Positions 3,207-51,745 of a stretch of 64,000 nt of DNA are shown piece after piece. This stretch comes from Minisyncoccota bacterium. Its GTDB lineage: Bacteria; Patescibacteriota; Minisyncoccia; UBA6257; 1-14-0-10-44-23. Each line of letters begins with the position of its first letter. The stretch's first letter is position 1. The DNA lies in the NCBI GenBank assembly GCA_041389085.1, contig JAWKSL010000001.1, forward strand, positions 34,921 through 98,920, read 5' to 3'. The notes beneath the pieces were generated by a model. It was not told the DNA's origin and did not search any database. It saw only the letters and a program-made list of their open reading frames with translations. A program made the translations under genes and the position numbers.

Positions 3207-6200
3207 CTAGGCTAGAGCCTCTTCGTCGTCTTCGCCAGTATCGTTGTTAAAGGCCTGATCTCCGAGGTAGTTGAGCCCTACTGGGATGGTGCGACCGATA
3301 ATAACGTTTTCCTTAAGACCGCGGAGCTTGTCTACCTTTCCGTCGAGGGCGCTTGCGATAAGAACGCGAGCGGTTTCTTGGAAGGATGCTGCTGAAAGGA
3401 AGCTTTCGGTTGAAAGTGCCACCTTGGTGATTCCCATAAGGATCTGCTTTGCCTTTGCAGGGGCTTTACCAGCCTTTTTCAGCTCTGCGTTCATTTCCTT
3501 AAACTGGCTTTTTTCGAGCACTTCACCGCGAACGAGGTCGCTGTCTCCTGCGTCTTGAATCTTTACGCGTGAAAACATTTGGCGAGCGATAAGCTCAATG
3601 TGCTTGTCGTTGATGTTTGCACCTTCGCTTGCGTACACTTGCTGTACTCCCTTTACGATTTCGCGCTCTACGTCGTCTGAACCTTTTGCTTCAAAGAGTT
3701 CGCGGAGGTCGAGGTTTCCTTCACAGAGTCTTTGCCCTGCTTTTACCTCGTCTCCTACGTTTACGAGAAGTTCGTTGCTGTTTGGAATTGGATATTCGTT
3801 TCCTTTTTCTTTCTTCGCAGCTCCTTCACGAACAACCTTAACGATACGAAGTCCTTCGCGCTGTTCGATGTCTACCACTACTCCGTCTTCCTTTGCTACG
3901 AAAGCCTTTCCTTTTGGAGGGCGTACTTCGAAAATTTCAACTACACGTGGAAGTCCGTGGGTAATGTCGGCTCCAGCAACTCCTCCGATGTGGAAGGTTC
4001 TCATGGTGAGCTGAGTTCCTGGCTCTCCGATTGACTGTGCTGCTACTACTCCTACTGCCTCTCCCTTTTCGATTGGCTTGTTCTTTCCAAGGTCGAATCC
4101 GTAACACTTTGCACAAAGTCCGTAGAGTGTGTTGCAGGTAAGTGGTGAGCGCACTACTACGTTGTCTGCTGTAGTCTTTTCTATTTCTTCTGCAACCTGG
4201 CGAGTGATGATTTCCCCTGCTTTTACGAGCGTCTTTTTACCATCCTTTACATCTGCTCCTGCAGTGCGTCCGAAGAGACGGTCTGCATAGCTTACGCCCT
4301 GAATACTGTCGCTATCTTCGCGGCGGAGTTCGATGGTTTTCTTTGTTTTACAGTCGTCTTCACGGATAACAAGGTCTTGAGACACGTCTACGAGCTTACG
4401 AGTAAGGTATCCAGCCTGCGCAGTCTTAAGAGCAGTGTCGGTGGTTCCTTTTCGAGCTCCGTGAGTTGAGTTGAAGTACTCAAGCACGTTGAACCCTTCT
4501 TTGAATGAAGACTTGATAGGAAGCTCAATGCTTTCTCCTTGTGAGTTCTGCACCATTCCTTTCATACCGGTAACCTGAGTGATCTGAGTCCAACTTCCAC
4601 GAGCTCCTGATGCAACGATTGAGTATACTGAACCGTTTTTGTCGAGTGTTTCTGGAACGAGCTTTGCCACCTCTTCTTTTGCATCGCGCCAAATTGAGGT
4701 AATTCTGGTGTGGCGCTCCTCGTCGGTAAGAAGCCCTTGGTTGAACTGATCCCAAACTTCTGCAACTTTCTTTGCTCCTTCTCCAAGAATTTCTTCTTTC
4801 TTTTCTGGAACAACAAGGTCGTCCATTGACCAGGTAATTCCTGATCTGGTTGCGTAGTGGAATCCGATCTTTTTAATAGTGTCGAGGTAGTGTGGTGCTT
4901 TATCTGCCCCGTAGGTGTCGATGATGCCTGAAACGATTTTCTTTAGCTTCTTCTTTCCTACTTCTTCGTTTACGAATGGGTATTCTACTGGAAGCGTTGA
5001 GTTAAACATAACGCGCCCTACTGAGGTTTCTACTTTTCCAATCTTTTCTCCGTAGATCTTGATGTTTGCGTTGATGTCGATGATGCCGTTTTCGTAGGCC
5101 AAAAGAGCCTCGTTTCGAGATGAGAATGCACGGCCCTCTCCCTTTGCTCCTTCTCTAATGCGGGTGAGGTAGTACACACCAAGCACGATATCTTGTGCTG
5201 GCACTACGATTGGGTCTCCGGTAGATGGTTTGAGGAGGTTTTTGCTTGAAAGCATAACTTCTCCTGCTTCACGCTGCGCTTCTGCTGAAAGTGGAAGGTG
5301 CACAGCCATCTGGTCTCCGTCGAAGTCGGCGTTAAACGCTGGACATACAAGCGGGTGAAGACGAATAGCAAAGTCTTCGATAAGGAGTGGCTCAAACGCC
5401 TGAATTCCGAGACGGTGGAGGGTTGGTGCACGGTTGAGAAGAACTTTTTTTCCGGCAATAACCTCTTCAAGGATTTCCCATACTTCTGGGCCCTTTGCGT
5501 CGATCAGCTTGTTTGAGTTCTTTACGTTGTGGGCAAGTTCGCGCTCGATTATCTTTGCGATAACAAATGGTCTAAAGAGCTCGAGAGCCATCTTCTTTGG
5601 AAGTCCACATTGGTGGAGCTTAAGCTCTGGACCTGCAACGATAACGCTTCGTCCTGAGTAGTCTACACGCTTACCAAGAAGGTTCTGGCGGAAGCGCCCT
5701 TGCTTTCCTTTAAGCATGTCTGAAATTGAACGGAGTGGGCGGCGCTGTGAGTTAAGCTGCTGACTTCCTTGGCGAGCAGAGTTGTCTACGAGTGCGTCTA
5801 CGGCTTCCTGGAGCATGCGCTTTTCGTTTATCAGAATAACCTCTGGCGCACGGAGCTCCATAAGCTTCTTAAGACGGTTGTTTCTGTTGATAACGCGGCG
5901 GTACAAGTCGTTTAAGTCGCTTGTCGCGTAACGTCCTCCGTCGAGTGCAACCATTGGGCGAAGGTCTGGTGGAATAACTGGGAGTACGGTAAGAATCATC
6001 CACTCTGGGCGCATATCTTCAGCAATCATTGAAGAAATCATCTTCAAGCGCTTAAGGTTTCGCACCTGACGAACTGAGTCTACTTTGTCCTTATCTATCT
6101 CTTTCTGAACTGCTTTTTTATATTCTTTAAGGTCTATCTTCTTAAGAATCTTTTGAATTGCTTCAGCTCCGATACCTGCCTCAAATACGTCTCCGAAACG

Positions 6201-13230: not shown

Positions 13231-13315
13231 ATATGAATTATTTTAGCAGAAAGAAAGACAAGATTTTAGACGTTAGATTTTTGATTTTTGAAGACGCTGA
13301 ACTATACGAAACAGG

Positions 13316-13344
13316 TTTGACATAGCGCCCTTTATGTTTTATAG
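13316..13344 (+). promoter_or_regulatory. Sigma70-like promoter TTGACA-17-TATAGC for GC-rich cassette A
   Basis: Read directly. Equivalent element upstream of cassette B. Confidence 0.5.
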
Positions 13345-13348
13345 CTAT

Positions 13349-13436
13349 AGGAGTTTTTTGAAAGCTATTTGCTCGGTTTTTGGCCGCACGTTTTTGCTCT
13401 TTTTGAGAGTAGAAATGTGCGGCTAAGAGGGCCGCA
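13349..13436 (+). promoter_or_regulatory. Conserved structured leader (copy A), ggagttttttgaa...gccgcacRtttttgctcttttTgagagtagRaatgtgcggctaagagggccgc, with alternative hairpins
   Basis: About 85 % identical to 14197-14269. 9-bp stem GCCGCACAU/AUGUGCGGC. The shared GCGGC can alternatively pair with the downstream GCCGC. Confidence 0.5.
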
Positions 13437-13511: not shown

Positions 13512-14078
13512 ATGCAAGGTAAAAAGATCACAATCGATCAGGGCAAGGAAGCTCTTGATCTTCTGAGCCGGCTCAGCCCGGAGCAGTACCAGGAGAGACG
13601 CGCTTGGTTGGCGCGCATTAGCGATCCTCGCTTTAACCCCAACATGCTCAGGCTATTCTACCCCTTCAAGGCTAATCAACCGTTCCAGTGGAACTGCCGC
13701 GGAGTTGAGCGCGAAGGAGCTGTCTGCGAGGCGTCTGTCACCATCGCCGATCTTGAGCTCGTCCCCTTCCACAAGGATGGTGAGAAGTGGATCAGTGGCG
13801 AAGAGATGCGCACTCGCGCTGCCGACGAGGAGGCCTACCCGGGGTGCTCAGGCTTCGGCCAGCACCAGGCCGAGGACATTCTCGAGCGAGCCTCTGAGCT
13901 GCCCGAGGAGTTCCGTAAGTACGTGATCGTCTTCGCGGACTCCGTTCTTTTGGACGGCGTCTGTCATCGATACGTTCCGTTCCTCGCCTGGGATGGCGGC
14001 CGGTGGCAGCTGAACTGGCGCTGGATCGATAGCAGCTTCGAACGCGTCTGCCGATTCCCTCGGCTGCGGCGTGAGTAG
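13512..14078 (+). CDS. Hypothetical protein (188 aa) in high-GC cassette A, distantly related in its C-terminal half to the cassette B protein
   Basis: Long GC3-rich ORF and ATG at 13512 after an AAAGG SD-like site. The ORF-track start at 13479 is an upstream extension. No known domain recognised. Confidence 0.6.
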   Translation: MQGKKITIDQGKEALDLLSRLSPEQYQERRAWLARISDPRFNPNMLRLFYPFKANQPFQWNCRGVEREGAVCEASVTIADLELVPFHKDGEKWISGEEMRTRAADEEAYPGCSGFGQHQAEDILERASELPEEFRKYVIVFADSVLLDGVCHRYVPFLAWDGGRWQLNWRWIDSSFERVCRFPRLRRE

Positions 14079-14096
14079 GAGCCGCCCACAACAATG

Positions 14097-14139
14097 ACCC
14101 CGCGCGATGCAGTGCATCGCGCGGGGTTTGTTCTTTTTT
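14097..14139 (+). terminator. Rho-independent terminator (ccccgcgcgatgcagtgcatcgcgcgggg + tttgttctttttt) of cassette A
   Basis: GC-rich hairpin followed by a T-run. Near-identical to 14950-14989. Confidence 0.8.
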
Positions 14140-14162
14140 ACCGCTCTAGAGATCTGATTGGT

Positions 14163-14191
14163 TTGACTTAAGGTGCTTTATATTTTATAAC
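14163..14191 (+). promoter_or_regulatory. Sigma70-like promoter TTGACT-17-TATAAC for cassette B
   Basis: Read directly. Confidence 0.5.
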
Positions 14192-14196
14192 TATGG

Positions 14197-14269
14197 GAGT
14201 TTTTTGAAGATTTTTGCCGCACATTTTTGCTCTTTTTTGAGAGTAGGAATGTGCGGCTAAGAGGGCCGC
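14197..14269 (+). promoter_or_regulatory. Conserved structured leader (copy B)
   Basis: Matches 13349-13436. Confidence 0.5.
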
Positions 14270-14329: not shown

Positions 14330-14926
14330 ATGTCTACAGACACCCGTTTAGATCTTGGAGCCGAACTCGACCGAAAGGTGCGAGAGAAGGGTGGCACGCG
14401 CGAAAATATCGCGCTCGTACTCAGGGAGCGGCCTGACATCATTGATGCTTGTGCCGCCCTGATTGTCGACGCAGCGCGTGAGACGAAGGTCAAGATTGAG
14501 CTCTCGATCGTCGTCGGCGAGGACGAGACTTTCGATAGTCTCGTAGCGGCCGGGCATTACGGCTCGAAGGGCGACTGGGTCACCGGAGAGCAGTTCCCTG
14601 TTCGTCCGAGCCAGCCTGGCGAGCGCCAGCTCGTGCTCTTGCACTTCGCCCGCGTCGTCTCCTCCGAGAATGCAATCGATGAGGCAGCCAAGCAGGGCTT
14701 GGAGCGTCCTACCTACGAAGACGCCTTGCGCTTCGGTGCTCAGCACCCTGAGGTGCAGTGCCAGTTCCCGGTCGTTTTCCTTCATGAACCCCTGCCGGAC
14801 GCGTACGACGGCCCGAGCGTCCTCTGCCTCGATTGTCGCGCCTCGGGGCGCGACCTGGACTACCGCTGGTTCGACGGCGGTTGGGGTTGCCTCTACCGCT
14901 TCGTCTTCGTCCGCCCTACAGCGTGA
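14330..14926 (+). CDS. Hypothetical protein (198 aa) in high-GC cassette B
   Basis: GC3-rich ORF with ATG at 14330 and GGAG 9 nt upstream. The 3' end and terminator module are shared with cassette A (gcgtgagtaggagccgNccacaacaatgacccc...). Confidence 0.6.
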   Translation: MSTDTRLDLGAELDRKVREKGGTRENIALVLRERPDIIDACAALIVDAARETKVKIELSIVVGEDETFDSLVAAGHYGSKGDWVTGEQFPVRPSQPGERQLVLLHFARVVSSENAIDEAAKQGLERPTYEDALRFGAQHPEVQCQFPVVFLHEPLPDAYDGPSVLCLDCRASGRDLDYRWFDGGWGCLYRFVFVRPTA

Positions 14927-14949
14927 GTAGGAGCCGACCACAACAATGA

Positions 14950-14989
14950 CCCCGCGCGATGCAGTGCCTCGCGCGGGGTTTGTTCTTTG
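14950..14989 (+). terminator. Rho-independent terminator of cassette B (one-base variant of the cassette A terminator)
   Basis: Hairpin plus T-run. Confidence 0.8.
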
Positions 14990-17054: not shown

Positions 17055-17598
17055 CCTGCTCGTTTAAGTTTTTTGCCAGGGCAAAAAACTTCTCGTACTC
17101 TGGCAACTCTTTGAGCTCGGTGATACCGAGGTATTTTAGCAGATCGAAGCTGGGTTTATAAAGGAAGGAGTTTTTATTTGCCGGATCGGTACGGCGCTCG
17201 ATAAGCCCGCGGATGAGTAAGTTTTTTAATATAAAGCTTGAGTTTACCCCTCGGATATAGTCTATGTGTGCCCTACTGACTGGTGCGCTGTAACAAACTA
17301 TCGCGAGTGTTTCGAGGGCTGCTGGGCTCAGCGCATCGTTCATTTCTGCTTTGAGTACTGACTGCAAAAGAGTGGCGTACTCTGGCTTTGTGGTGAGCTG
17401 AAACTTGTCTTCAATGTGGGTAAGGCTGAGCGCTAAGCTGCTTTCTTGCAAGTTTGTTTTAAGAAGCTCTACTGCTGCGTCAAAATCTTCGTCGCTGAGC
17501 TCAAGAAGTTTTTTGAGCCTGTTTTTTGAAATAGGCTCTCCGTAAATAAAAAGGAGGCTTTGAATTTTCCCTGCGTTGTCTTTACTGGCTTGGCTCAT
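17032..17598 (-). CDS. scpB: Segregation and condensation protein B
   Basis: ScpB-like tandem winged-helix (LLFIYGEPIS...). Overlaps scpA. Confidence 0.85.
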   Translation of the reverse strand: MSQASKDNAGKIQSLLFIYGEPISKNRLKKLLELSDEDFDAAVELLKTNLQESSLALSLTHIEDKFQLTTKPEYATLLQSVLKAEMNDALSPAALETLAIVCYSAPVSRAHIDYIRGVNSSFILKNLLIRGLIERRTDPANKNSFLYKPSFDLLKYLGITELKELPEYEKFFALAKNLNEQGADEENE

Positions 17599-18328
17599 GC
17601 TCGTTTTTCTTTGAAATCGTTATACTTCCAAAACCTTGGTCCTGCTTCACTTCAAGAAGCTTGTTTGCAAATAGGTGAAGAATAGCTAAAAACAATACTA
17701 CCACCTCTTGCCTATCCTTTCCTTCGCTTAGTCTTGAAAAGTCTTGCGTAGCTACTCGCTCAAGTGTTTGCTTAAGCTCGGCCATTTTATCCTGCAAACT
17801 GGTGAGCTTAATCTTAATCTCTGCTTTTTGGGGAAGCAAATCTTTAAGTGAAGCAAAAAGAGTGCGCAGGCTAGTTTGTAGATGCTCTGGCTTTAAATTT
17901 TTTGGCGGGTAAAACAAATTCTCTGCAAAAAGCTGTTGAAGCATCTGCCGGCTATAGCTCTTTTCTTTTCTTTGCCAGAGCTTGTCTACGTGTGCCGCTG
18001 CGTTGTCGCTCTTCCCCTGCTTTACGCTGAAGTGTTGGTAGAGCATAAGGCGAGCTTCAAGGTCGGCTATGTCGGCTTCTTCTTCAGTGCTGAGCTCAAG
18101 AGTTGGAAGGAGCGATTTTGACTTGATAAGGAGCAGCCTGCTCGCTGTTTGCACAAAGTCGGCTAAAAGAATTGGCTGCACGTTTTCTAAGCTCTCTACG
18201 TAACTGATAAAGTCTTGAGTAACGCTGGCTAGCCCGAGCCTGTTTATATCTATTTTCTTTTCTTGAATAAGGCTAAGAAGCTTGTCTAAGGGCCCGGAAA
18301 ACTGCTCTGTCTTTACTTGATACTGCAT
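17582..18328 (-). CDS. scpA: Segregation and condensation protein A (kleisin)
   Basis: ScpA N-terminus FSGPLDKLLSLIQEKKIDI and operon with scpB. Confidence 0.85.
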   Translation of the reverse strand: MQYQVKTEQFSGPLDKLLSLIQEKKIDINRLGLASVTQDFISYVESLENVQPILLADFVQTASRLLLIKSKSLLPTLELSTEEEADIADLEARLMLYQHFSVKQGKSDNAAAHVDKLWQRKEKSYSRQMLQQLFAENLFYPPKNLKPEHLQTSLRTLFASLKDLLPQKAEIKIKLTSLQDKMAELKQTLERVATQDFSRLSEGKDRQEVVVLFLAILHLFANKLLEVKQDQGFGSITISKKNEHEPSQ

Positions 18329-18398
18329 TTCTACTCTATTGTATTATTATTTTCGCTGCTGTGTAGGGCGCCTTTTGTATAATGATTTCCTGCGTTCT

Positions 18399-18483
18399 CC
18401 CCGCGTGCTTCGCGCGCTGCAGCAAAGCCAACGAGTCTTCGCTCGGGCTTGCTGCGGGACAGGCGCCGCATCCACCTGGATGC
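18399..18483. repeat. Structured hairpin element, copy 1 of 3 (related to 34536-34636 and 37226-37325)
   Basis: Hairpin ctgcagcaaagcc/gggcttgctgcgg with loop AACGAGTC.., then GGGACAGG. Stems differ between copies by compensatory changes. Confidence 0.5.
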
Positions 18484-18490
18484 ATTTATG

Positions 18491-19777
18491 CTAACTTTCG
18501 TCTTCATGGCTTCGTAAAGCTTCTTTAGTATATCTATTACTTGCATTCCATAGCATCCAGCCAGATACGTATTTTGAGCAGGCTCTTTTTTCTGTAAGTG
18601 TTTGGCAGTCTGAATACTTTGCTGCGCTGTCTTCTATAGCTTGAATTTGCGCCCGTACTTTTGCGGCATCGTAGTCTGCTCCAAGATCGAAGTCTTGAAT
18701 CCACGGTCGCATAGTTGGCTGCACTGGGAAACTTCTTACTTGAGCTGGAACCTGCGGCGTAGCGCTCGCGGTTGCTGTTTCTGGGGTAGACGGCGTCGGA
18801 GTATACACAAGGTTTAGACGCGCAAGCGCTTCGTCTATTGAATACTTCATAACTTCGTAAGGATACTCTGCTGGGTTGTCGTAGCCGATAAAGCCGTCTG
18901 CATAGTGGCTTGGGTAAGTCATTGGCGCAATTGCGTTTATATACGGCATAGCATCTTCAAGTACTTGGCCGATGCCTATGTCTCTTCTCGCGTAGGCAAC
19001 TTCGCCAAAAAGGTCTGCGCTTATCATGGCGTTTGGTAAACTTTCGCGTACGTATTTAAAGAAGCTTTTTAAAATATCTCTCTTTGGCGTTACCTCGTCG
19101 TAAAACGGGTAGGCTATATCGTCTGTATTGCCATCGGTAGCAAAGCGAATGTAGTCAAAATTTACCTCATCGAAGCCTCTGTCTAAAATGTCTTTGGCTA
19201 TCGCTATATTGTAGTCCCAGACTTCTTTGCTGGAAGTATCCATCCAGTGCACATCTTTTCTGTCGCCCCAAATGCCGCCCTTGCTTTTACTTTGAATGGC
19301 TAAGTCTTGTCTCGCGTTTGCCAGCTTATTGTCTTGAAAAGTAGAGATGCGCGCTATAAGGTAAATGCCGTTTTTGTGGAACTTGCGAATGAGCGCGTCT
19401 ATGTCGGGAATGCGATTTTCAAACGCCTCGTACTCTACAACTGCTTCAACGTCTGGCTTGTACGAAACAACACCGGTGTAGTCTTTTATATCTATAACGA
19501 TGGCGTTGAGCTCTGTGGAATTTATCAAATCGATAAAACCATCTACTCGCTCGCTGTTTCCCGCAGAAAACGCTGTGGCGTATATTGCCTTCACTACCTC
19601 TGGCGGATTTTTCAGCTTTTGGAGGAGTGGGTCTTTTTCTTCTTTTTTCTCCTCTTGGTGCTTTGTGGCGTTTTCCGCATTGAGCGTAAACGACACTGAG
19701 TTGTCTTTTGCTACTACTATCAGCACAAAGAGGAAAATAAGGACTATCGCGATAATAATGAGGTTTCTTCGCGTCAT
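18491..19777 (-). CDS. Membrane-anchored putative glycoside hydrolase (GHL10/YddW-YngK-like TIM barrel)
   Basis: N-terminal TM, GFDEVNFDYIRF block reminiscent of the GHL10 G-DG-LDY-R-P motif. Family recalled from memory, not searched. Confidence 0.5.
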   Translation of the reverse strand: MTRRNLIIIAIVLIFLFVLIVVAKDNSVSFTLNAENATKHQEEKKEEKDPLLQKLKNPPEVVKAIYATAFSAGNSERVDGFIDLINSTELNAIVIDIKDYTGVVSYKPDVEAVVEYEAFENRIPDIDALIRKFHKNGIYLIARISTFQDNKLANARQDLAIQSKSKGGIWGDRKDVHWMDTSSKEVWDYNIAIAKDILDRGFDEVNFDYIRFATDGNTDDIAYPFYDEVTPKRDILKSFFKYVRESLPNAMISADLFGEVAYARRDIGIGQVLEDAMPYINAIAPMTYPSHYADGFIGYDNPAEYPYEVMKYSIDEALARLNLVYTPTPSTPETATASATPQVPAQVRSFPVQPTMRPWIQDFDLGADYDAAKVRAQIQAIEDSAAKYSDCQTLTEKRACSKYVSGWMLWNASNRYTKEALRSHEDES

Positions 19778-21865: not shown

Positions 21866-22000
21866 AATGGCCGTGCCTACGGCAGATAAACTCACACATA
21901 TCGCCTTCAACTTTAACGGCTCACACGTACGTGTGAGCCGTTAAAGTTCTAGTCTAGGATGTAGTATCCATGCGCCCCTTTCCGTGTGAGGCGTTTGTGG
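21866..22000. repeat. Mosaic repeat copy II: small hairpin + aaactcacac + 40-bp perfect palindrome (21909-21948) + conserved tail ...gtagtatccatgcgcccctttccgtgtgaggcgttt
   Basis: Palindrome identical to copy I. The tail matches 2022-2072. The head (ggccgtgcctacggcagataaactcacac) matches 51524-51552. It sits between convergent genes (bidirectional terminator position). Confidence 0.8.
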
Positions 22001-26228: not shown

Positions 26229-27185
26229 TCAGTATTCCTCACGGATGGGAAGCTTACTTACTACTGGGCAGTTCCTGCTAGTAATAGTGTTTGTTCCGGT
26301 ATAGGTTCCTGCTGCAGTTGCCGGTGGTACTCCAAGTCCCCACGAAATTGTATCTGTTGTTGTCGGGTTTCCGTCGTTTGTCGGTTGAGGAAGGGTAATG
26401 TTGATGTAGGTTGGCGTTGTAGAAAGGTCGGTTCCTGCGCTGTAAACGAAGGGATCAGCATCGTACTCCTGGTTTCCTACGGTAAGAGTATCTCCACCGC
26501 TTGTCATGTTAGTACCTGAAAGCTGTGGGTCCATATCTACGTTCCCTGTGTTGGTAACAGTAGTTGTAGAGTTTTGATCTGCAGAGTCTGATCCTGCAGC
26601 GAGTGTTCCATAGGCTATGGAAGCGGTAACGTCGAGTGCCTGCAGGGTGTTAATTTCGGTGGTTCCGGTGCTGTCTGTTGATGTTGCAGTACCATCTCCT
26701 GCTTTGAGAGTTGCTACCCAGTTTTGTGCGCTAAATGAACCAGTGTCGGTAGGGTCTGCATAGTACTGAATTGGTACTCCGCACCCATAAGCTGCTGAAG
26801 TGTCTGAGCCACCGTCGCAGGTGTTTGAGTCGAGCACAACACAGGTTACTTGCGCGTAGCAATTGTTGTTGTCTGACTCTCCGCTCGTGTCGCAACCCGT
26901 TGCAGTTATACCTGAGCGATAAAAGTCGAGCGTAACAGCAAAAATCTCACCACAGCCGTTTGTGTCGGTAACGGTAAGCGTGGTTGTGGCTACGGTAATA
27001 ATCCCCTCTGTTAGGGTAATGTTGCTTCCACTGTTTACTGAAACGCTAGAAATAGATGGAGTGGCGTTTCCGACAGTAACTGAGGTGCTTACTGAGTCTG
27101 CTGATACTAAGGTTGCTGAGAAAATCATGACTGCTGAAATGACAACTGCCAGCAGAATGTTCTTCGTAGTACTTGAAATGCTCAT
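26229..27185 (-). CDS. Secreted Thr/Ser/Gly-rich Cys-containing protein, paralogous to the C-terminal 300 aa of the 765-aa protein
   Basis: Signal peptide begins at the ATG at 27185 (MSISSTTKNILLAVVISAV..). C-terminal about 100 aa nearly identical to the C-terminus of 27260..29557. Confidence 0.55.
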   Translation of the reverse strand: MSISSTTKNILLAVVISAVMIFSATLVSADSVSTSVTVGNATPSISSVSVNSGSNITLTEGIITVATTTLTVTDTNGCGEIFAVTLDFYRSGITATGCDTSGESDNNNCYAQVTCVVLDSNTCDGGSDTSAAYGCGVPIQYYADPTDTGSFSAQNWVATLKAGDGTATSTDSTGTTEINTLQALDVTASIAYGTLAAGSDSADQNSTTTVTNTGNVDMDPQLSGTNMTSGGDTLTVGNQEYDADPFVYSAGTDLSTTPTYINITLPQPTNDGNPTTTDTISWGLGVPPATAAGTYTGTNTITSRNCPVVSKLPIREEY

Positions 27186-27259: not shown

Positions 27260-29557
27260 CTACTGCCCCGCTCCTGCAGTAATAGTGTTTGTTCCGGTAT
27301 AGGTTCCTGCTGCAGTTGCCGGTGGTACTCCAAGGCCCCATGAAATGGTGTCGGTGGTTGTCGGGTTTCCGTCGTTTGTCGGTTGAGGAAGGGTAATGTC
27401 GAGTGCGGCACTAAGACCAGATAAGCTCGTGCCTGCTCCATAAGTAAATGCGTCTGCAGCATACTCTATGTTTGATGCTGAAATTGAGTTTGCGCCGCTT
27501 GTCATGTTAGTACCTGAAAGAAGTGGGTCCATGTCTACGTTTCCAGTGTTGGTAATAGTTGTTGTACTATTTGAACCGCCCGTATCGTTTCCTGGGTCGA
27601 TAGTGCCAAAGTCGATGGTGCTTTCCGTAATTTCTAAGGCAAGAAGTGAAGCCATTTCAATAGTGTCGCTACTTGTTGTTCCTGCACCATCGCCGTCGCT
27701 TGGCGTTAGCGTACATGTCCAGGTATCGCTTGCATTTGGCGAGCCTGCATCGGTAGCGTCTGCATAGTAGTAGACCGGGATAGTGCACGTATACGTTTCG
27801 CTATTCCCTGACCCACCTGATGGGACGCACTCGCTATCGCCCGATTCTTGATAGTGGCTATTGTTGTCGAGCCCTGAACCAATTCCTACTGATGTTCTAA
27901 ATAAGTCTGCCTTCACTGAGTCTATGTCTGCATAACCATCCGCATCCGTTACCGTGCCGGCGCAGACTACGTTTTTTGTTGTTCCTTCGGTAAGGGTTAT
28001 CGACGATGCATCTGAGTCTATCGAAATTGCACTTGCGATTGGCGCTGTGTTTCCACTCGATGTAGCAAAGGTTGCAACGTTGATGGCGAAGAAGCCTACT
28101 GTATTTGCTTGTGTTCGATCTGTCCCTCCACCCTCTGTTCCTGTAATCGGATTCATATCAAGACCGATGTCGTGGCCGTCAGTAGCTACAAAATATATAG
28201 CTCCTGGGTGGAAGCTTCCTGCAAATGTGTCTTGACTTCCCTGGTTTCCGCGCGTGTAGGCACCGTGTCTGCCGAGCGTTTGCTGAGTGCCATTTACGGT
28301 GATCGATCCGTACGCGGTCAATCGCTGCCCAGCACTTACGTTGTTTCGTGCTGTCCATACGTTTGCCCAAGCTAAAACATCGGTTGAGTTTACAACATTC
28401 ATCGCTGAGTTGCTTGCTTTTGTAAAACTTTCAGAGTCGTTAAATTCTACGTCGCGCATAGCGTTCAGCGTTACCGCGCTGGTGATATTTTGGAGCCCTG
28501 TTGAGTCGTGTGACTTAAACACTTCTACGTTGTCTGGTAGCTCTAGCACCACTATTTGACCATTCCCATCAAGGTCAAACGATCCGTCTACATCTGCACC
28601 TCCTTGGTCTGCAGATACACCCGGACCTCTAAATACCTCTACCTGAATGTCGATGTCCGATGTGCTTGTTTCGATAAGATCCATAGAGCCGATACCGCAG
28701 TACTCGTTTGCACTGCTTCTCTGATAGCAGTATGAGCGCGTTGATAGTGCGTCTGTGCCTCCATACTCAAGGTGCCCAATTCTTTGAGTTCTTGAACCCC
28801 CTGTATCTCCTGATATTCCCCAGGCAATAAGGTAGCGCTTATTATCTCCCTTTACGGTTACAGTGTCTGCTGAGGTGTTTACTTCTATAGCGCTGGAGTT
28901 TGATTGCACAACAGTTCCTGTGAGGTCCATTGTATTTGGAGTTGTGCCTCCTGCTGCTCCACTTGTCGCTCCGTAGTTATATATACCCCAGTTTTCTGGG
29001 TTTATTCTTACAATCTGAAGGTTTGATAAGCCAGCAACACTTCCTCCTGTAGCTTCGTCTGTGTCTCGCCTTGTTTGTATTTCTACTCGCGAGTTTGCGG
29101 TTGCACCAATAATGACCCCGACAGCTCGGCTCCAGTACTCATCTTCTGAGTTGTCGCGAGAATATCCGGTCATATAGGTTGTAAATACTGATCCGCTTCC
29201 TGAGGTTTGTACCACTTTTGACTGAATGTTGTTTCTTCCGTTTGAAGTATCGTTTCCTCGTGTTGTAGCCAAAATAAGATAGCTTCCTGCTTCATCGAGC
29301 TCAATTGTTGAGCTGCTTATTTGCGTATAGATGCCGTCGTTTCGAATTTCAGTATCGTATTCGTACGCGGCAAAGCTTGTACCCGCAGTCTGGCTTCCCG
29401 TTTGGTCTTGCCAGTGCCCAATGTCTCCGACAGCTGCCTCTACACTCTCAGGTCTAGGAGGAAAATTAAGGTCGCCCCAAACTTGAGGCCATCCTGCAAA
29501 AATCCAAGCAAGAACCAGGGCGAATATCGCTATGTTTCTTCCGAGCCTTAATTTCAT
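27260..29557 (-). CDS. Large secreted Ser/Thr/Gly-rich surface protein (765 aa)
   Basis: N-terminal signal peptide, low-complexity T/S/G-rich composition, paired Cys. Shares a C-terminal module with the downstream gene. Confidence 0.6.
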   Translation of the reverse strand: MKLRLGRNIAIFALVLAWIFAGWPQVWGDLNFPPRPESVEAAVGDIGHWQDQTGSQTAGTSFAAYEYDTEIRNDGIYTQISSSTIELDEAGSYLILATTRGNDTSNGRNNIQSKVVQTSGSGSVFTTYMTGYSRDNSEDEYWSRAVGVIIGATANSRVEIQTRRDTDEATGGSVAGLSNLQIVRINPENWGIYNYGATSGAAGGTTPNTMDLTGTVVQSNSSAIEVNTSADTVTVKGDNKRYLIAWGISGDTGGSRTQRIGHLEYGGTDALSTRSYCYQRSSANEYCGIGSMDLIETSTSDIDIQVEVFRGPGVSADQGGADVDGSFDLDGNGQIVVLELPDNVEVFKSHDSTGLQNITSAVTLNAMRDVEFNDSESFTKASNSAMNVVNSTDVLAWANVWTARNNVSAGQRLTAYGSITVNGTQQTLGRHGAYTRGNQGSQDTFAGSFHPGAIYFVATDGHDIGLDMNPITGTEGGGTDRTQANTVGFFAINVATFATSSGNTAPIASAISIDSDASSITLTEGTTKNVVCAGTVTDADGYADIDSVKADLFRTSVGIGSGLDNNSHYQESGDSECVPSGGSGNSETYTCTIPVYYYADATDAGSPNASDTWTCTLTPSDGDGAGTTSSDTIEMASLLALEITESTIDFGTIDPGNDTGGSNSTTTITNTGNVDMDPLLSGTNMTSGANSISASNIEYAADAFTYGAGTSLSGLSAALDITLPQPTNDGNPTTTDTISWGLGVPPATAAGTYTGTNTITAGAGQ

Positions 29558-34389: not shown

Positions 34390-34447
34390 AGACATGAAAA
34401 AATTTGGCGACAACATGGGCCTTTTTGCAGACTACTGCATCTAGGCA

Positions 34448-34478
34448 CTAAAAAGCGCCCCTTGCGGGGCGCTTTTAT
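34448..34478. terminator. Bidirectional rho-independent terminator aaaagcgccccttgcggggcgcttttatttt
   Basis: GC hairpin flanked by A-run and T-run, between convergent genes. Confidence 0.8.
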
Positions 34479-34535
34479 TTTCAATACTCATTAAACACTT
34501 TTGAGTTCTACTCTACGGCTAGCTTCGAATTTCTA

Positions 34536-34636
34536 CCCCGCATGCTTACGCGTGCTTGCAGTAGAGCCAACGAATCAAGTTCGGGCTCACTGCAGGGCAG
34601 GACTCTTTCACTCTATCCTGGATTCCCAAAGATAAG
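34536..34636. repeat. Structured hairpin element copy 2 in the 3' region of the adhesin gene
   Basis: Stem tgcagtagagcc/ggctcactgca, loop AACGAATCAAGTTCG, tail GGGCAGGACTCTTTCACTCTA shared with copy 3. Confidence 0.5.
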
Positions 34637-34657
34637 ATTAAGAGTGGTTTGAAGTTT

Positions 34658-36112
34658 CTAGCTTCTTATCTCTACTGGGCCGTGAGTTGATACATGCGTA
34701 GTCTTTCTACCGCTTAGCAAGAGGTATACGAGCAACGCAATGATTATCAGGATAAGGAACCATGGGCTGAAGATGAGGTACCCAAGTGCAGAGAATGCAC
34801 TTGCGAATGCCACATCGTTTCGAACACCAGTTTCAATAACGGTAGTGTTTGTTCCAAGCACTCCATTAGTGATGATTCCTTCTGGGAGTTGCACGAATGC
34901 AAGCTCTCCGGTGGTATCAGTCTGCTTACCTGCTACGGCGTGAGCCTTTAGGTAGTAGGTAGTGTTCATTGGAAGACGACCAAGGTTCACTTGGTGGTAG
35001 GTGGTTGTTCCACCTGCGCTTCGAACGAACTCGTAGGCTGATAGTCCTTGCTCCTCATCGTCAACGTGTGAGCTGAGCGAGTAATATACGCTTCCTTGTG
35101 CTGGAATGGTGGTTTGGAAGCTTACGATTACGTTGAGGTTTGCATCGTTTTCAACCCGAAGGTCGAAGATGTCCAAGTCTGCTACTGCAGGCTCAACTAC
35201 TACTGTAGGGCCTGGTACGTAGATGATTTGGCGCCCCTGTACGTATACAGAGAAGCTCTGAGTGGTAAATGCCTTTCCATCAAACGCCTGTACGGTTACC
35301 GCGTGTGATGTGTTTGCAAGACCACCTGCAGCAGTCCAACTGATAAATCCAGTACTTGGATTAATAGTCATTCCTGCTGGAGCTTGAACAAGCGCGAACA
35401 CTACAACATCGCCGTCTGCATCAAATGCGTTTACGTCGTAGCTGTATGAAGTTCCTGCTTGAACAAGAGTAACTGGGCTAGAGATGATTTGAGGAGCACG
35501 GTTGCCTGTGCTTGGGTTGTCGTTTCCTTCGCCAACGCGCACCGTTGAACAGCGGTCGCTGTCGCGGTTTCCGTTTGCATCGGTAACTTCTACCTCTACA
35601 TCATACTCACCAGTTCGGTTGAAACGAACTGACTCTTCGTCGTCGTTTCCACTAATGTCTCCATCCCAATCGATGTCGTATGGAGCTCTTCCGCCACTAA
35701 TCTTTACCTCAAAGTCCACACGGTCTCCTGCCTCGATACGAGTATCAGAAACCTCACAGCGAACTGAAAGATTGTTTGTTGGTGGTGGGGTGGTTGGAGT
35801 ACCACATGAAACACATGTGTTGTTGGTGTTTGTCCAACCTGAGTTTGTGTTTGTGTTACTTACTACACCTCCTCCCTGCTCAGCATTGATCGTTGGATCA
35901 TAGCTGTTTGGGTTGTTTGCATTCCAGTCTGTGTGACAAGCTGGATCTTGGCTATCGATAAGACCGTTTTGGTTGTTATCGTAGTTATCAGAACACTGGG
36001 TGAAGCCAGCGGCAGTTCCGACCAAAAGTGCTGTACCTGAAAGAGACACTATTGTTACAAGCATCACAATCAGGACAGTCATTGCCTTTCCTATTGATTT
36101 TCGGTTTTTCAT
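34658..36112 (-). CDS. Multi-domain surface adhesin-like protein (signal peptide, Cys-bracketed acidic motif, PKD-like, Ig/cadherin-like, FN3-like, C-terminal TM anchor)
   Basis: RVDFEVKISGG..YDVEVEVTDANGN (PKD-like), APQIISSPV..FDADGD (He_PIG-like), FN3-like YYLKAH segment, C-terminal TM. Paralog of 37347..38810. Confidence 0.6.
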   Translation of the reverse strand: MKNRKSIGKAMTVLIVMLVTIVSLSGTALLVGTAAGFTQCSDNYDNNQNGLIDSQDPACHTDWNANNPNSYDPTINAEQGGGVVSNTNTNSGWTNTNNTCVSCGTPTTPPPTNNLSVRCEVSDTRIEAGDRVDFEVKISGGRAPYDIDWDGDISGNDDEESVRFNRTGEYDVEVEVTDANGNRDSDRCSTVRVGEGNDNPSTGNRAPQIISSPVTLVQAGTSYSYDVNAFDADGDVVVFALVQAPAGMTINPSTGFISWTAAGGLANTSHAVTVQAFDGKAFTTQSFSVYVQGRQIIYVPGPTVVVEPAVADLDIFDLRVENDANLNVIVSFQTTIPAQGSVYYSLSSHVDDEEQGLSAYEFVRSAGGTTTYHQVNLGRLPMNTTYYLKAHAVAGKQTDTTGELAFVQLPEGIITNGVLGTNTTVIETGVRNDVAFASAFSALGYLIFSPWFLILIIIALLVYLLLSGRKTTHVSTHGPVEIRS

Positions 36113-37073: not shown

Positions 37074-37111
37074 ATATTAGCATATAAGTTTGTATTTGTC
37101 AATAGATAACT

Positions 37112-37137
37112 AAAAAGCACCCGAAAGGGTGCTTTTT
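37112..37137. terminator. Bidirectional terminator aaaaagcacccgaaagggtgcttttt
   Basis: Read directly. Confidence 0.8.
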
Positions 37138-37225
37138 AGAATCTCGTGTAAGAATGGCTTTTAGCCTGTCTTTATCTCTCGATAAACTCGAGATGAGACG
37201 TCGGCTTTAACCAATCTCAACCCTT

Positions 37226-37325
37226 GCCCCGCCGAAGGCGGGGCTCGCACCAAATCTAACGGTCAAGCCAGAGATTGGTGCGGGGCAGGACTCTTTCACT
37301 CTACCTTTGGATTTCCAATGATAGG
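37226..37325. repeat. Structured hairpin element copy 3
   Basis: ccccgccgaaggcgggg hairpin, stem gcaccaaatct/agattggtgc with loop AACGGTCAAGCCAG, tail GGGGCAGGACTCTTTCACTCTA. Confidence 0.5.
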
Positions 37326-37346
37326 AGCGAAGAGTAACAGGAAGTT

Positions 37347-38810
37347 TTAGCCTCCTATTTCTACCTGTGCTGGCTGCTGATAAACAGCTACATGGCTTTC
37401 CTTTCTCTTGAAGATAATCAAGAGAAGAAGAGCTATGATAACCAGCAGCAAGAAGAATGGGTTGAAGATAAGGAATCCAAGAGCAGCTATTGCTGAACCA
37501 AGTGCTACAGAATTAATAGAGTTTGCACTGTTGAGCATGATAAAGCTTCTCTCTTCTGAAACCTTAACCTGAGTACCTACTTCGCTTACGATGCGGAAGT
37601 AGTATGTACGGTCAGACTGAAGGTTTCCGAGCCATACCTTGTGAGAGGTAGATATAGCGGTGCTTTGTGGGCTGCTATATTCGTAACGATAGTTTTGTAC
37701 GTTTGGTTGGCTTGCAAGTCCGTAGACTACATATCCACGTGATGGCTTGCTTGTCTCCCAGATAACATACACGTTGTCGTTCTCGTCCTTTTCTACACGG
37801 ATGTTGAACTGTGAAAGATCGATGTTTGAGTCCACTTCAACTACTTGCGCGGTGCGCTCTACCACTACAGTACGGGTTACTGGAACCTGAACGATAGTTG
37901 GGGTAATTGGAGCTGGAACGTTGATCTGCGGAATAGTTGGGTATGAAGGAATTTGCACAGTTGGGGTGGTGTTTCGAACACGGTCAGCCTCAACAGTAAT
38001 TTTAATGTCTCCCTCACACTCTGAGTATCCATCGGTAGCTGAGTATTCGAATCGGTATGTATCCTCATCGCCTACTTCAGTAGTCCAGCTAAAACGACCA
38101 GTGTTCTTATTGAAGTCTGAACCACGTGGCTCATCATCAATGTCGTAATCAATGTCGTTTGTAACTGATCCACGTACATCCACTTTGAAACTTACGCGCT
38201 CTCCCTCGTCTACACGCACGCTCTCGTCTTTACAAACAAGGTTGCTTGTAGCTGGATTTGGCGCTGGACTTGGTTGTGGCTGTGGGGTAGGATCTACTAC
38301 CTGGTTTATCTTATAGATACTAAGAGTTACTTTCTGACTTCCGTTTCGGTTGTCAGTGATTGGGCTATCCTTAAGCCAAAGCCAAAGGTTTGTACCCGAT
38401 CCTGAGATGGTAATAGTCTTTGACTTACCAGCTCCTGCCTGACTAGCAGAATATTGGTCTTGGAAGTATCCAGGAGCTATATCGATGGCCTTTTGAAGAC
38501 CAGTTTCAGATATATACTGAATGTTTGCACGTGGTACCCATGTACCAGTAGTTGTGTACTGGCTAGCACCTTTATCTTGGTCGCTTGACCATGGGCTCCA
38601 TGAACCTCCTTCGTGTTCGATCACGTAAGTTCCTGGTTCAAGAGAAAACCCGTTTACGTTCCCTGGGGCTGCGGTAGCGCTGCTACGAGCATCGAGGGTA
38701 ACGCGTTGTATAAACTGCTTTGTAGTAGCAGCATCTGCCGGCATTGAAGCTGAAAGTGCTACGAAGAGCACAAGCCCAAACGCAAGGCTAAATTTTACGA
38801 GATTATTCAT
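37347..38810 (-). CDS. Surface adhesin-like paralog (signal peptide, Ig-like, FN3-like, C-terminal TM anchor)
   Basis: Same architecture and C-terminal anchor (GFLIFNPFFLLLVIIALLLLIIFKRK) as 34658..36112. Confidence 0.6.
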   Translation of the reverse strand: MNNLVKFSLAFGLVLFVALSASMPADAATTKQFIQRVTLDARSSATAAPGNVNGFSLEPGTYVIEHEGGSWSPWSSDQDKGASQYTTTGTWVPRANIQYISETGLQKAIDIAPGYFQDQYSASQAGAGKSKTITISGSGTNLWLWLKDSPITDNRNGSQKVTLSIYKINQVVDPTPQPQPSPAPNPATSNLVCKDESVRVDEGERVSFKVDVRGSVTNDIDYDIDDEPRGSDFNKNTGRFSWTTEVGDEDTYRFEYSATDGYSECEGDIKITVEADRVRNTTPTVQIPSYPTIPQINVPAPITPTIVQVPVTRTVVVERTAQVVEVDSNIDLSQFNIRVEKDENDNVYVIWETSKPSRGYVVYGLASQPNVQNYRYEYSSPQSTAISTSHKVWLGNLQSDRTYYFRIVSEVGTQVKVSEERSFIMLNSANSINSVALGSAIAALGFLIFNPFFLLLVIIALLLLIIFKRKESHVAVYQQPAQVEIGG

Positions 38811-38894: not shown

Positions 38895-38932
38895 GTATTG
38901 GCTTTTTAGGCTATTTTTGCTATATTCCCTCT

Positions 38933-39270
38933 TAGTAGCAGGGCAACTACTCTAGATTGTTTACATTCTAGGGAGGAAAGTCCGGACTCCCTTTCCCCTT
39001 TCGGGGTCAAAAATGTAGTAGCTAACAGCTATCACAGGTGACTGAGAGATGCGAGCAGAGACGCTGGCGCAGAAATGCTGCCAGGACCCTTATCTCAAGC
39101 TAAACGGGTCAATCCAGCCATAGAGACAAGAAAGCTGGGGTGAAACGGCTAAATTCTTACAGGGTGCAAGGCCGTGTCCCGCTTTGCGGGAAGTGCCGCT
39201 TGAGGGCTGTGGCGACACAGCTCCTAGGTAAATTGTTGCCAAGAACAGAATCCGGCTTACTCGCTACTAA
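38933..39270 (+). ncRNA. rnpB: RNase P RNA (bacterial type A)
   Basis: P4 halves GAGGAAAGUCCGG (38974-38986) and ACAGAAUCCGGCUUAC (39244-39259). P1 pairing AGUAGC../..GCUACU. Followed by a terminator. Confidence 0.85.
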
Positions 39271-39273
39271 CTA

Positions 39274-39297
39274 AAAAGCCCCTTTCGGGGTTTTTTA
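39274..39297. terminator. Bidirectional terminator aaaaagcccctttcggggtttttt
   Basis: Read directly. Serves rnpB (+) and the DHH gene (-). Confidence 0.8.
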
Positions 39298-51519: not shown

Positions 51520-51661
51520 ACGGCCATGCCCGCGGCAGGTAAACTCACACTGAACGCCAAGGAAGTACCGAATCTCGAAACTTTAACGGCTCACAAACGC
51601 CAAGGAAGTACCGAATCTCGAAACTTTAACGGCTCACACGTACGTGTGAGCCGTTAAAGTT
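51520..51661. repeat. Mosaic repeat copy III: head ggccatgcccgcggcaggtaaactcacac, a 43-bp tandem duplication (51553-51595 / 51596-51638) and the 40-bp perfect palindrome (51622-51661)
   Basis: Palindrome identical to copies I and II. Tandem duplication read directly. Confidence 0.8.
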
Positions 51662-51745
51662 GGCTAGGCATCCCCAGTCTTGGCTGTCTTTCGCCCCTTC
51701 GGGGCTCAAGACGAAGACTGTGAAGCCGTTAAAGTCCCCTGCCGA

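Follow-up and report, generated by a model that had tools for sequence, protein, structure and literature searches.

A small structured repeat of Paceibacterota, flanked by duplicated gene ends, as a candidate non-autonomous insertion element

Introduction

The YPAL/RU-2 repeats of Yersinia are without TA ends, carry internal inverted repeats, are not A+T-rich and are associated with duplications of 3-26 bp (PMC2229807). REP/BIME sequences are imperfect palindromes of 20-40 nt with a conserved head; they usually number more than 100 copies, form alternating clusters and are linked to RAYT (IS200-like) transposases, and the HUH-type transposition that concerns them leaves no target duplication (PMC2817692).

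The literature that we searched holds no description of the element reported here, nor of any interspersed repeat family in CPR bacteria. The genomes of these bacteria are tiny and tightly packed. Among other systems that bear on the present case, integron attC sites have RYYYAAC/GTTRRRY boxes paired at the base of their fold and lie in cassette arrays beside intI. The e14 element and phage 21, which enter the icd gene of E. coli, supply a replacement gene end; they span kilobases, carry an integrase gene and have one site each. To our knowledge, no SINE-like retroposon has been found in bacteria. Here we describe a small structured element that occurs three times in a 64-kb stretch of a Candidatus Paceibacterota (CPR) MAG, part of a 312,629-bp contig (the stretch is called the window below), and we compare it with these systems.

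Results

A conserved unit of about 68 nt

A sequence-only reading of the window had reported three copies of a structured RNA-like element, and all three are borne out. A loose signature, CCCCGC..GC..AACG..GGNCAGG, applied as a regular expression, matches the 64 kb only at 18399-18463, 34536-34601 and 37227-37289. A covariance model trained on the first six copies, a type of search that the same reading had proposed, recovers the three at 68-86 bits (E about 1e-15 to 1e-20), the best other match in the window reaching 9.7 bits, and finds extra copies in relatives. The conserved unit (CCCCGC...GGRCAGGAC(T)) is about 68 nt long with a sharp 5' edge. The cores are as follows.

Copy 1 core, 18399..18465, + strand: P1 CCCC/GGGA, P2 GCGTGC-TTC-GCGCGC, P3 GCAGC-A-AAGCC-AA-CGAG..CTCG-GGCTT-GCTGC, CAGG tail; 79.1 bits
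Copy 2 core, 34536..34603, + strand: 85.8 bits
Copy 3 core, 37227..37291, + strand: P2 degenerate, with an alternative CCCCGCC-GAA-GGCGGGG possible; 68.1 bits

Nine copies were found in all, the six outside the window every one in related Paceibacterota sequences: four in one other MAG (GCA_030699515.1) and two, L117 and L118, at the site orthologous to copy 1. Scanning 185,579 species genomes for the pattern gave 104 loci, three of them true homologues (L033, L084 and L091a, all in GCA_030699515.1); the other 101 were G+C-rich coding sequence, mostly one conserved actinobacterial gene. The fourth copy in that MAG, L091b, was picked up by the covariance model at 79.4 bits. L118 (43-44 bits) and L117 (31 bits) were reached through the DUF4015 hydrolase protein, at 62-64% identity, and carry the element in unchanged orientation. 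A metagenome pattern scan gave eight matches and a viral scan one, all attributable to chance, and blastn against plasmids and phages returned no copies.

No known RNA family was recognised in the element. Rfam 15 at gathering thresholds reported only RNase P RNA and a tRNA across the whole window, a permissive Rfam scan of 34400-34700 matched only the neighbouring terminator, all far under threshold, and no ARAGORN tRNA or tmRNA prediction overlaps any copy. The RNase P RNA (bacterial class A, 38931-39275, + strand) scores 102.4 bits against a threshold of 100, in keeping with a divergent CPR form. Group II intron domain V, hammerhead or other ribozyme cores and attC boxes were considered as identities for the element and rejected on reading the sequence, from which their defining motifs are absent.

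A three-way junction with compensatory stem changes

All three window copies share one predicted fold, a three-way junction in which P1 (CCCC/GGGR) encloses P2, a short hairpin, and P3, whose helix segments of 5, 5 and 4 bp are predicted to be separated first by a bulged A and then by an AA bulge and to be capped by a 5-6 nt loop; folding of the core is predicted for every copy. The two hairpins described in the sequence-only reading are therefore both present and are, in addition, joined by P1. Its supposed loop start, AACG(R)(R)TC, is indeed conserved, not as a loop: the AA is the bulge, and what follows is the 4-bp helix segment CGAR/YTCG that carries the loop.

Across the first six copies, canonical pairing is kept in 96.4% of cells, changes on both sides are seen at 8 of 24 pairs, and the covariation score of 0.317 (0.131 in shuffles) was reached by none of 500 shuffles. 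Since pairing is also lost once the 3' partners are shifted by 1-3 columns, the compensatory stem changes noted earlier are genuine. Orthologous copies change in the same manner (GCAGCAAAGCC/GGCTTGCTGC in the window, GCACCAAAACC/GGTTTGGTGC in L118), although the flanking protein is just 62-64% identical. Two orthologues depart from the common form, P2 being lost in L117, and P2 and the tip of P3 enlarged in L118. The compensatory changes among copies and between orthologues support the earlier claim that this is not a neutral repeat, and indicate selection on the fold.

A U.G pair at one P2 position in six of the nine aligned copies corresponds to a C.A mismatch on the minus strand. In L033, the pair beside this recurrent position is G.U, and the overall tally is 8 G.U against 4 A.C. 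Because such recurrent pairs would be mismatches on the opposite strand, the folded strand is most likely the + strand of the window, as had been guessed before; RNA and single-stranded DNA are alike compatible with this.

Position of the copies relative to genes

In the window, 52 of 65 non-overlapping ORFs lie on the minus strand. Copy 1 was correctly placed by the sequence-only reading between a hydrolase gene (DUF4015, 18491-19777, minus strand) and scpA (17582-18328, minus strand). Copies 2 and 3 had been assigned to the 3' regions of two adhesin genes, upstream of their terminators; the terminators are there, and the copies are not inside the genes. They lie in the 3' UTRs, past the stops of Ig-domain genes 34658-36112 and 37347-38810 (both minus strand) and ahead of the intrinsic terminators. 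Each core is followed by a tail of 0-55 nt that is specific to the locus or subfamily and usually forms a hairpin with a U-rich end; in L084, TTTTT comes immediately after the core.

Copy 1 tail, 18468..18483, + strand: hairpin GCATCCA-CC-TGGATGC then ATTTATG; terminator-like, kept with a U-rich tail in L117 and L118
Copy 2 tail, 34604..34657, + strand: hairpin ACTCTT..AAGAGT then GGTTTGAAGTTT, common to copy 3; its end falls exactly at the stop codon
Copy 3 tail, 37292..37346, + strand: homologous to the copy 2 tail
Bidirectional intrinsic terminator, 34451..34476, both strands: serves the VKOR gene (+) and the Ig-domain gene (-); outside the element
Intrinsic terminator, 37110..37139, strand unassigned: downstream of Ig-domain gene 37347-38810; outside the element

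A terminator scan reported 34451-34476, 37110-37139 and the hairpin in the tail of copy 1; it did not report the core itself, which on the minus strand has no U-run after it. Orientation relative to neighbouring genes varies: most copies are antisense, L091b, which starts 10 nt past the glmS stop, has the same sense as that gene, and the L033 copy precedes a tRNA-Arg gene. Six of the nine copies, representing four independent sites, lie 25-55 nt past the stop of a gene on the strand opposite the core. The neighbours are housekeeping genes in mixed orientation, and the host genes (for a hydrolase, Ig-domain proteins, scpB and glmS) are functionally unrelated.

Mechanically called ORFs of 71-73 aa cross the element at 18331-18546 of the window (minus strand) and at L091 3278-3499 (+ strand), and gene callers might report them; both are probably spurious, and Pfam gave no match for the one in the window. 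The membrane-anchored Ig-domain proteins end, after a hydrophobic segment, in the conserved motif GPVEI(K/R)S and a stop (window 34658-34681, L001 11380-11409, L003 2020-2050), which may be a C-terminal sorting or anchoring signal. In the related MAG, a long run of the heptamer CCTATAA (L002 about 5484-5590 and beyond) directly follows the terminator of an Ig-domain gene.

Gene ends are duplicated beside the element

Beside nearly every copy lies what its sequence identifies as a duplication of the adjacent gene end, a feature newly found here. In the orientation of the element, the order is target copy, core, tail and a second target copy that runs on into the gene. The duplications are 18, 19, 20-24, 21, 39 and about 60 nt long; in copy 2, copy 3, L091a and L091b their end coincides with the stop codon, and none was detected at L084. 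The duplicates agree at 19/19 positions in L091a and 34/39 in L117 (0/300 shuffles each) and at 15/18 in copy 2 (3/300 shuffles); those of copy 1, copy 3 and L091b were recognised at the protein level.

Copy 1, gene-attached, 18491..18547, minus strand: functional 3' end of the DUF4015 hydrolase gene, NASNRYTKEALRSHEDES then stop
Copy 1, detached, 18331..18396, minus strand: NAGNHYTKGALHSSENNNTIE then stop; 2 nt from the 5' edge of the core and reaching the scpA start; contains TGTATAAT and the promoter-like site for scpA
Copy 2, gene-attached, 34658..34675, minus strand: VEIRS then stop, the stop and last five codons of Ig-domain gene 34658-36112
Copy 2, detached, 34519..34536, minus strand: VEIRS then stop, abutting the core; three differences, all synonymous; then native 3' UTR conserved with L002
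Copy 3, gene-attached, 37347..37370, minus strand: AQVEIGG then stop, the end of Ig-domain gene 37347-38810
Copy 3, detached, 37207..37227, minus strand: ARVEIG then stop, abutting the core; four synonymous codons, one replacement, one codon deleted in frame
L091a: attached TTATTCCAAGGTTGAGACC (gene end plus stop); detached identical, 19/19
L117: attached NPSNVYTKEALLVE then stop; detached NPSNLYTKEALLAS then stop
L091b: attached KPRNLAKSVTVE then stop; detached KPRNLAKSVTVE then stop
L033: attached full tRNA-Arg; detached about 20 nt of the tRNA 5' end

The detached copy is followed by native downstream sequence, of which AAGTGTTTAATGAGTAT, common to L002, is an example. Codon differences between duplicates are 11 synonymous and no replacement in L091b, 3 and 0 in copy 2, 4 and 3 in L117 and 4 and 7 in copy 1; in each of these cases, so few replacements would have a probability of 0.006 or less under random substitution. 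Serine codons switch between TCN and AGC in L091b and L118. A mixture model, with synonymous drift in the attached copy and free decay in the detached one, would fit most loci, not L091b. Candidate origins of the synonymous divergence are a replacement gene end carried by the element, recombination with empty alleles in the population that has overwritten the detached copy time and again, or later replacement of the gene by a diverged allele with the core as homology patch.

The idea that translation continues across the element, with ribosomes reading through or hopping to the second gene end, was rejected because the path is in frame and open only in L091b; the spacing between the gene-end copies is out of frame in L091a and, by coordinates, also in copy 2 and L117. 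A diversity-generating retroelement was likewise rejected, the differences between duplicates not being adenine-specific and no reverse transcriptase lying nearby. The tRNA-Arg 5' fragment duplicated beside the element in L033 is itself split, at about 791-843, by a G+C-rich hairpin segment of another sort (CCGCCCG...CGGGCGG, about 53 nt), which may belong to a further small insertion family.

Filled and empty sites

The DUF4015-scpA spacer contains the element in the window, where it is 162 nt long, and in L117 and L118; in L121 and L122 it is empty and measures 20-45 nt, and in L119 the covariance model finds no element. In L001-L003, which hold the nearest homologues of Ig-domain gene 34658-36112 found in relatives (48-53% identical), the stretch up to the converging VKOR gene is free of the element. 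Conversely, L084 has the element in a spacer of 275 nt behind scpB, and the window ORFs at the corresponding position overlap, leaving no spacer. The cores of L084 and L091a differ at one position, and their flanks and tails are unrelated, a pattern that speaks for recent spread.

Copies 2 and 3 can be aligned end to end over core and tail, with an identity estimated by eye at 75-80%, and the Ig-domain proteins of their host genes are 29% identical. A likeness that so far exceeds that of the proteins points to separate insertions of one subfamily. Descent from a duplication of the two genes, which the earlier reading had called paralogous, was rejected for this reason and because the nearest homologues found in relatives, at 48-53% identity, are without the element. 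The possibility that tails are repeats or copies of local sequence was also rejected, as they show no similarity anywhere among the loci compared. Patchy occurrence, near-identical cores in unrelated flanks and the flanking duplications together argue for an insertion element over a dedicated antisense sRNA gene. At L123 2483, in the same strain assembled independently from another sample, a contig stops right where the L091a core has its left edge, as expected if the core is a repeat that the assembler could not resolve.

Other repeats in the window

A second repeat family is built around a perfect 40-nt palindrome, AACTTTAACGGCTCACACGTACGTGTGAGCCGTTAAAGTT, at 1975-2069, 21902-21996 and 51553-51709, the last preceded by an exact 43-nt tandem duplication (51553-51638). 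A near-identical palindrome lies at L002 3775-3805, between the two Ig-domain genes of the other MAG, so that more than one genome holds this family. Repeats spaced by about 850 bp between 13250 and 15000 (13314-13362 with 14160-14208, and 14064-14136 with 14916-14988, including the CCCCGCGCG terminator hairpin) suggest a tandem duplication over two ORFs that have no Pfam match. A 125-nt direct repeat, 94% identical and with its copies 998 nt apart (26280-26404 and 27278-27402), lies inside two adjacent minus-strand ORFs.

Discussion

We propose, with a probability of about one half, that these copies belong to an interspersed insertion element, non-autonomous and confined to one lineage, a small clade of Paceibacterota (CPR), and that its + strand three-way junction is the substrate by which it is recognised. 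Insertion would occur beside gene boundaries, most often right after a TAA or TAG stop, and would duplicate the adjacent 18-21 nt of the target, in a few cases 39 or about 60 nt, so that the last codons are present once on the gene and once more past the core. The junction sequences, the bulged A and AA and the recurrent U.G could then constitute a single-strand substrate, RNA or DNA, for a mobilising enzyme encoded elsewhere, and such a role would account for stems that change only by compensatory substitution. We infer mobility in trans, as we do the type of intermediate, for which DNA seems somewhat the better bet (roughly three to two over RNA), and any function for the host. An inserted copy could stay at one site over long periods. 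That the orthologous copy-1 site has kept its element for so long, with compensatory changes in the stems, suggests that it has a function for the host as well.

Several observations sit uneasily with this proposal. No transposase, integrase or reverse transcriptase is present in the annotated parts of the 64-kb window, which covers about 20% of its contig, and no related autonomous insertion sequence in those parts or in what was annotated of a few contigs of GCA_030699515.1. The element is without terminal inverted repeats and is known from just nine copies. The wholly different tails of near-identical cores (L084 and L091a) speak against core and tail moving together, and the mostly synonymous differences between duplicates are not what simple duplication followed by neutral decay of the detached copy predicts.

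The best-placed alternative, which we nevertheless regard as unlikely, is a family of + strand small-RNA genes. The core, tail hairpin and U-rich end of each would make up an RNA of about 70-130 nt, working in trans or antisense to the converging 3' end. The G.U pairs favour the + strand, structure is kept at the orthologous site, and tails tend, though not uniformly, towards a hairpin with a U-rich end that would suit a transcript of that strand; a terminator-like hairpin follows copy 1, its L117 and L118 counterparts run into U-rich stretches, and a run of T comes straight after the L084 core. The sequence-only reading had suggested such an antisense sRNA, driven by a possible extended -10 promoter before copy 1. 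The box is there (TGTATAAT, 18375-18382, 17 nt upstream of copy 1), but it falls in the detached remnant of the last codons of the hydrolase (ATTATACA, where TATACA encodes ..Y T..) and is not kept in the orthologues, which have TGTATAGG (L117) and GGTATACC (L118) at this position. A promoter scan predicted no + strand promoter for copies 2 and 3, and none common to the copies was found; the detached copy also holds a minus-strand promoter-like site for scpA, from 18365 to 18338. Small-RNA genes would, moreover, be oddly represented by L091b, so close behind the glmS stop on the same strand, and they leave the flanking duplications, the empty orthologous sites and the near-identical cores in unrelated flanks unexplained. 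Duplications, empty sites and patchiness favour the insertion element instead.

We consider it improbable that the reverse complement of the core serves as a cis element of minus-strand mRNAs, placed in a 3' UTR or between operon genes as a stabiliser, processing site or aid to termination. The position 25-55 nt past an opposite-strand stop at four independent sites, and the position of copies 2 and 3 between stop codon and intrinsic terminator, are what such an element would show. On that strand, however, the recurrent U.G becomes a C.A mismatch, and the structure has no U-run after it in any of the three window copies. L091b is oppositely oriented to its upstream gene and L033 lies ahead of a tRNA, the host genes are unrelated in function, and the element is absent from homologous or orthologous genes of relatives.

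A bacterial SINE-like retroposon is, in our estimate, equally improbable. Here, a + strand RNA extending from the CCCC edge to the U-rich 3' end would be copied into DNA at a nick just past the A-rich stop; the gene-end duplication would then result from a second nick, some 19 nt off or at times further. The element resembles eukaryotic SINEs in its structured head, sharp 5' edge, variable 3' tail, variable duplications and short bases shared at the 5' junction (GACC in L091a), and differs from them in having no linked reverse transcriptase, no internal promoter and tails that differ between near-identical cores. In a bolder variant, the element would be a homing module in which the gene-end copy that abuts the core is a guide or homology arm, and a synonymously recoded gene-attached copy would escape re-targeting.

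Slightly less probable still is a tiny integrative module that brings its own replacement of the end of the target gene and enters by recombination there, its version and that of the chromosome having diverged: mainly synonymous differences and serine codon-family switches make both copies look as if they evolved as coding sequence, native sequence follows the detached copy, and the geometry is that of integration by a circle bearing a homologous segment, but each copy has a different target and no one site for a site-specific recombinase is evident, the segments of homology measure a mere 18-21 nt, the L091a duplicates are identical, and no integrase is seen in the annotated parts.

The CPR element ranks among the smallest structured repeats and shows clear compensatory evolution, and it accounts for oversized intergenic spacers, spurious small ORFs (18331-18546, for example) and assembly breaks in these MAGs. 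Its insertion signature is unusual, being a gene-end duplicate, often precise to the stop codon, whose two copies specify one peptide with different codons. If the element is mobile, this signature constrains the mechanism; if it is RNA-mediated or homology-guided, it would be a bacterial mobile element of a new kind.

Returning to the insertion-element reading, known systems resemble the element to differing degrees. Against a MITE, terminal inverted repeats are absent, the unit starting with CCCCGC and ending in unrelated locus-specific tails; its only end-to-end pairing is the 4-bp P1, within the core, and its target duplications are not of fixed length. The integron attC site is similar in keeping structure over sequence, in its bulged bases on one strand, in strand-specific recognition and in lying just downstream of coding sequence; unlike attC, the element has CCCC/GGGG at its base, an AAC in a bulge with no partner GTT, no cassette array and no nearby integrase. 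With e14 and phage 21 in icd it shares a duplicated gene 3' end specifying one peptide with different codons, and differs in being a unit of about 100-130 nt found at many different sites. Like REP/BIME, it is structured, extragenic, placed after genes and found in either orientation, and REPs are recognised as folded single strands and therefore have compensatory stems (PMC2817692); it departs from them in its 68-nt three-way junction, single copies and flanking duplications, with no RAYT gene seen.

The nearest known kind is that of the small structured intergenic bacterial repeats, with YPAL/RU-2 the closest. The element is like YPAL/RU-2 and the Caulobacter CIR in being short, non-coding, multicopy and intergenic near gene ends, with a strong single-strand fold and both filled and empty sites (PMC2229807). 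It differs from them in sequence, to which it shows no similarity, in the size of its core (about 68 nt, against 100-170 nt), in folding as a three-way junction where they form a long hairpin or two arms, in duplications of its own that run from 18-21 up to about 60 nt, are usually precise to the stop codon and have diverged synonymously, and in its CPR host. What it has in common with YPAL/RU-2, namely variable-length duplications, internal rather than terminal inverted repeats, the lack of TA ends, a composition that is not A+T-rich and filled as well as empty sites, is a resemblance in kind and not a homology of sequence.
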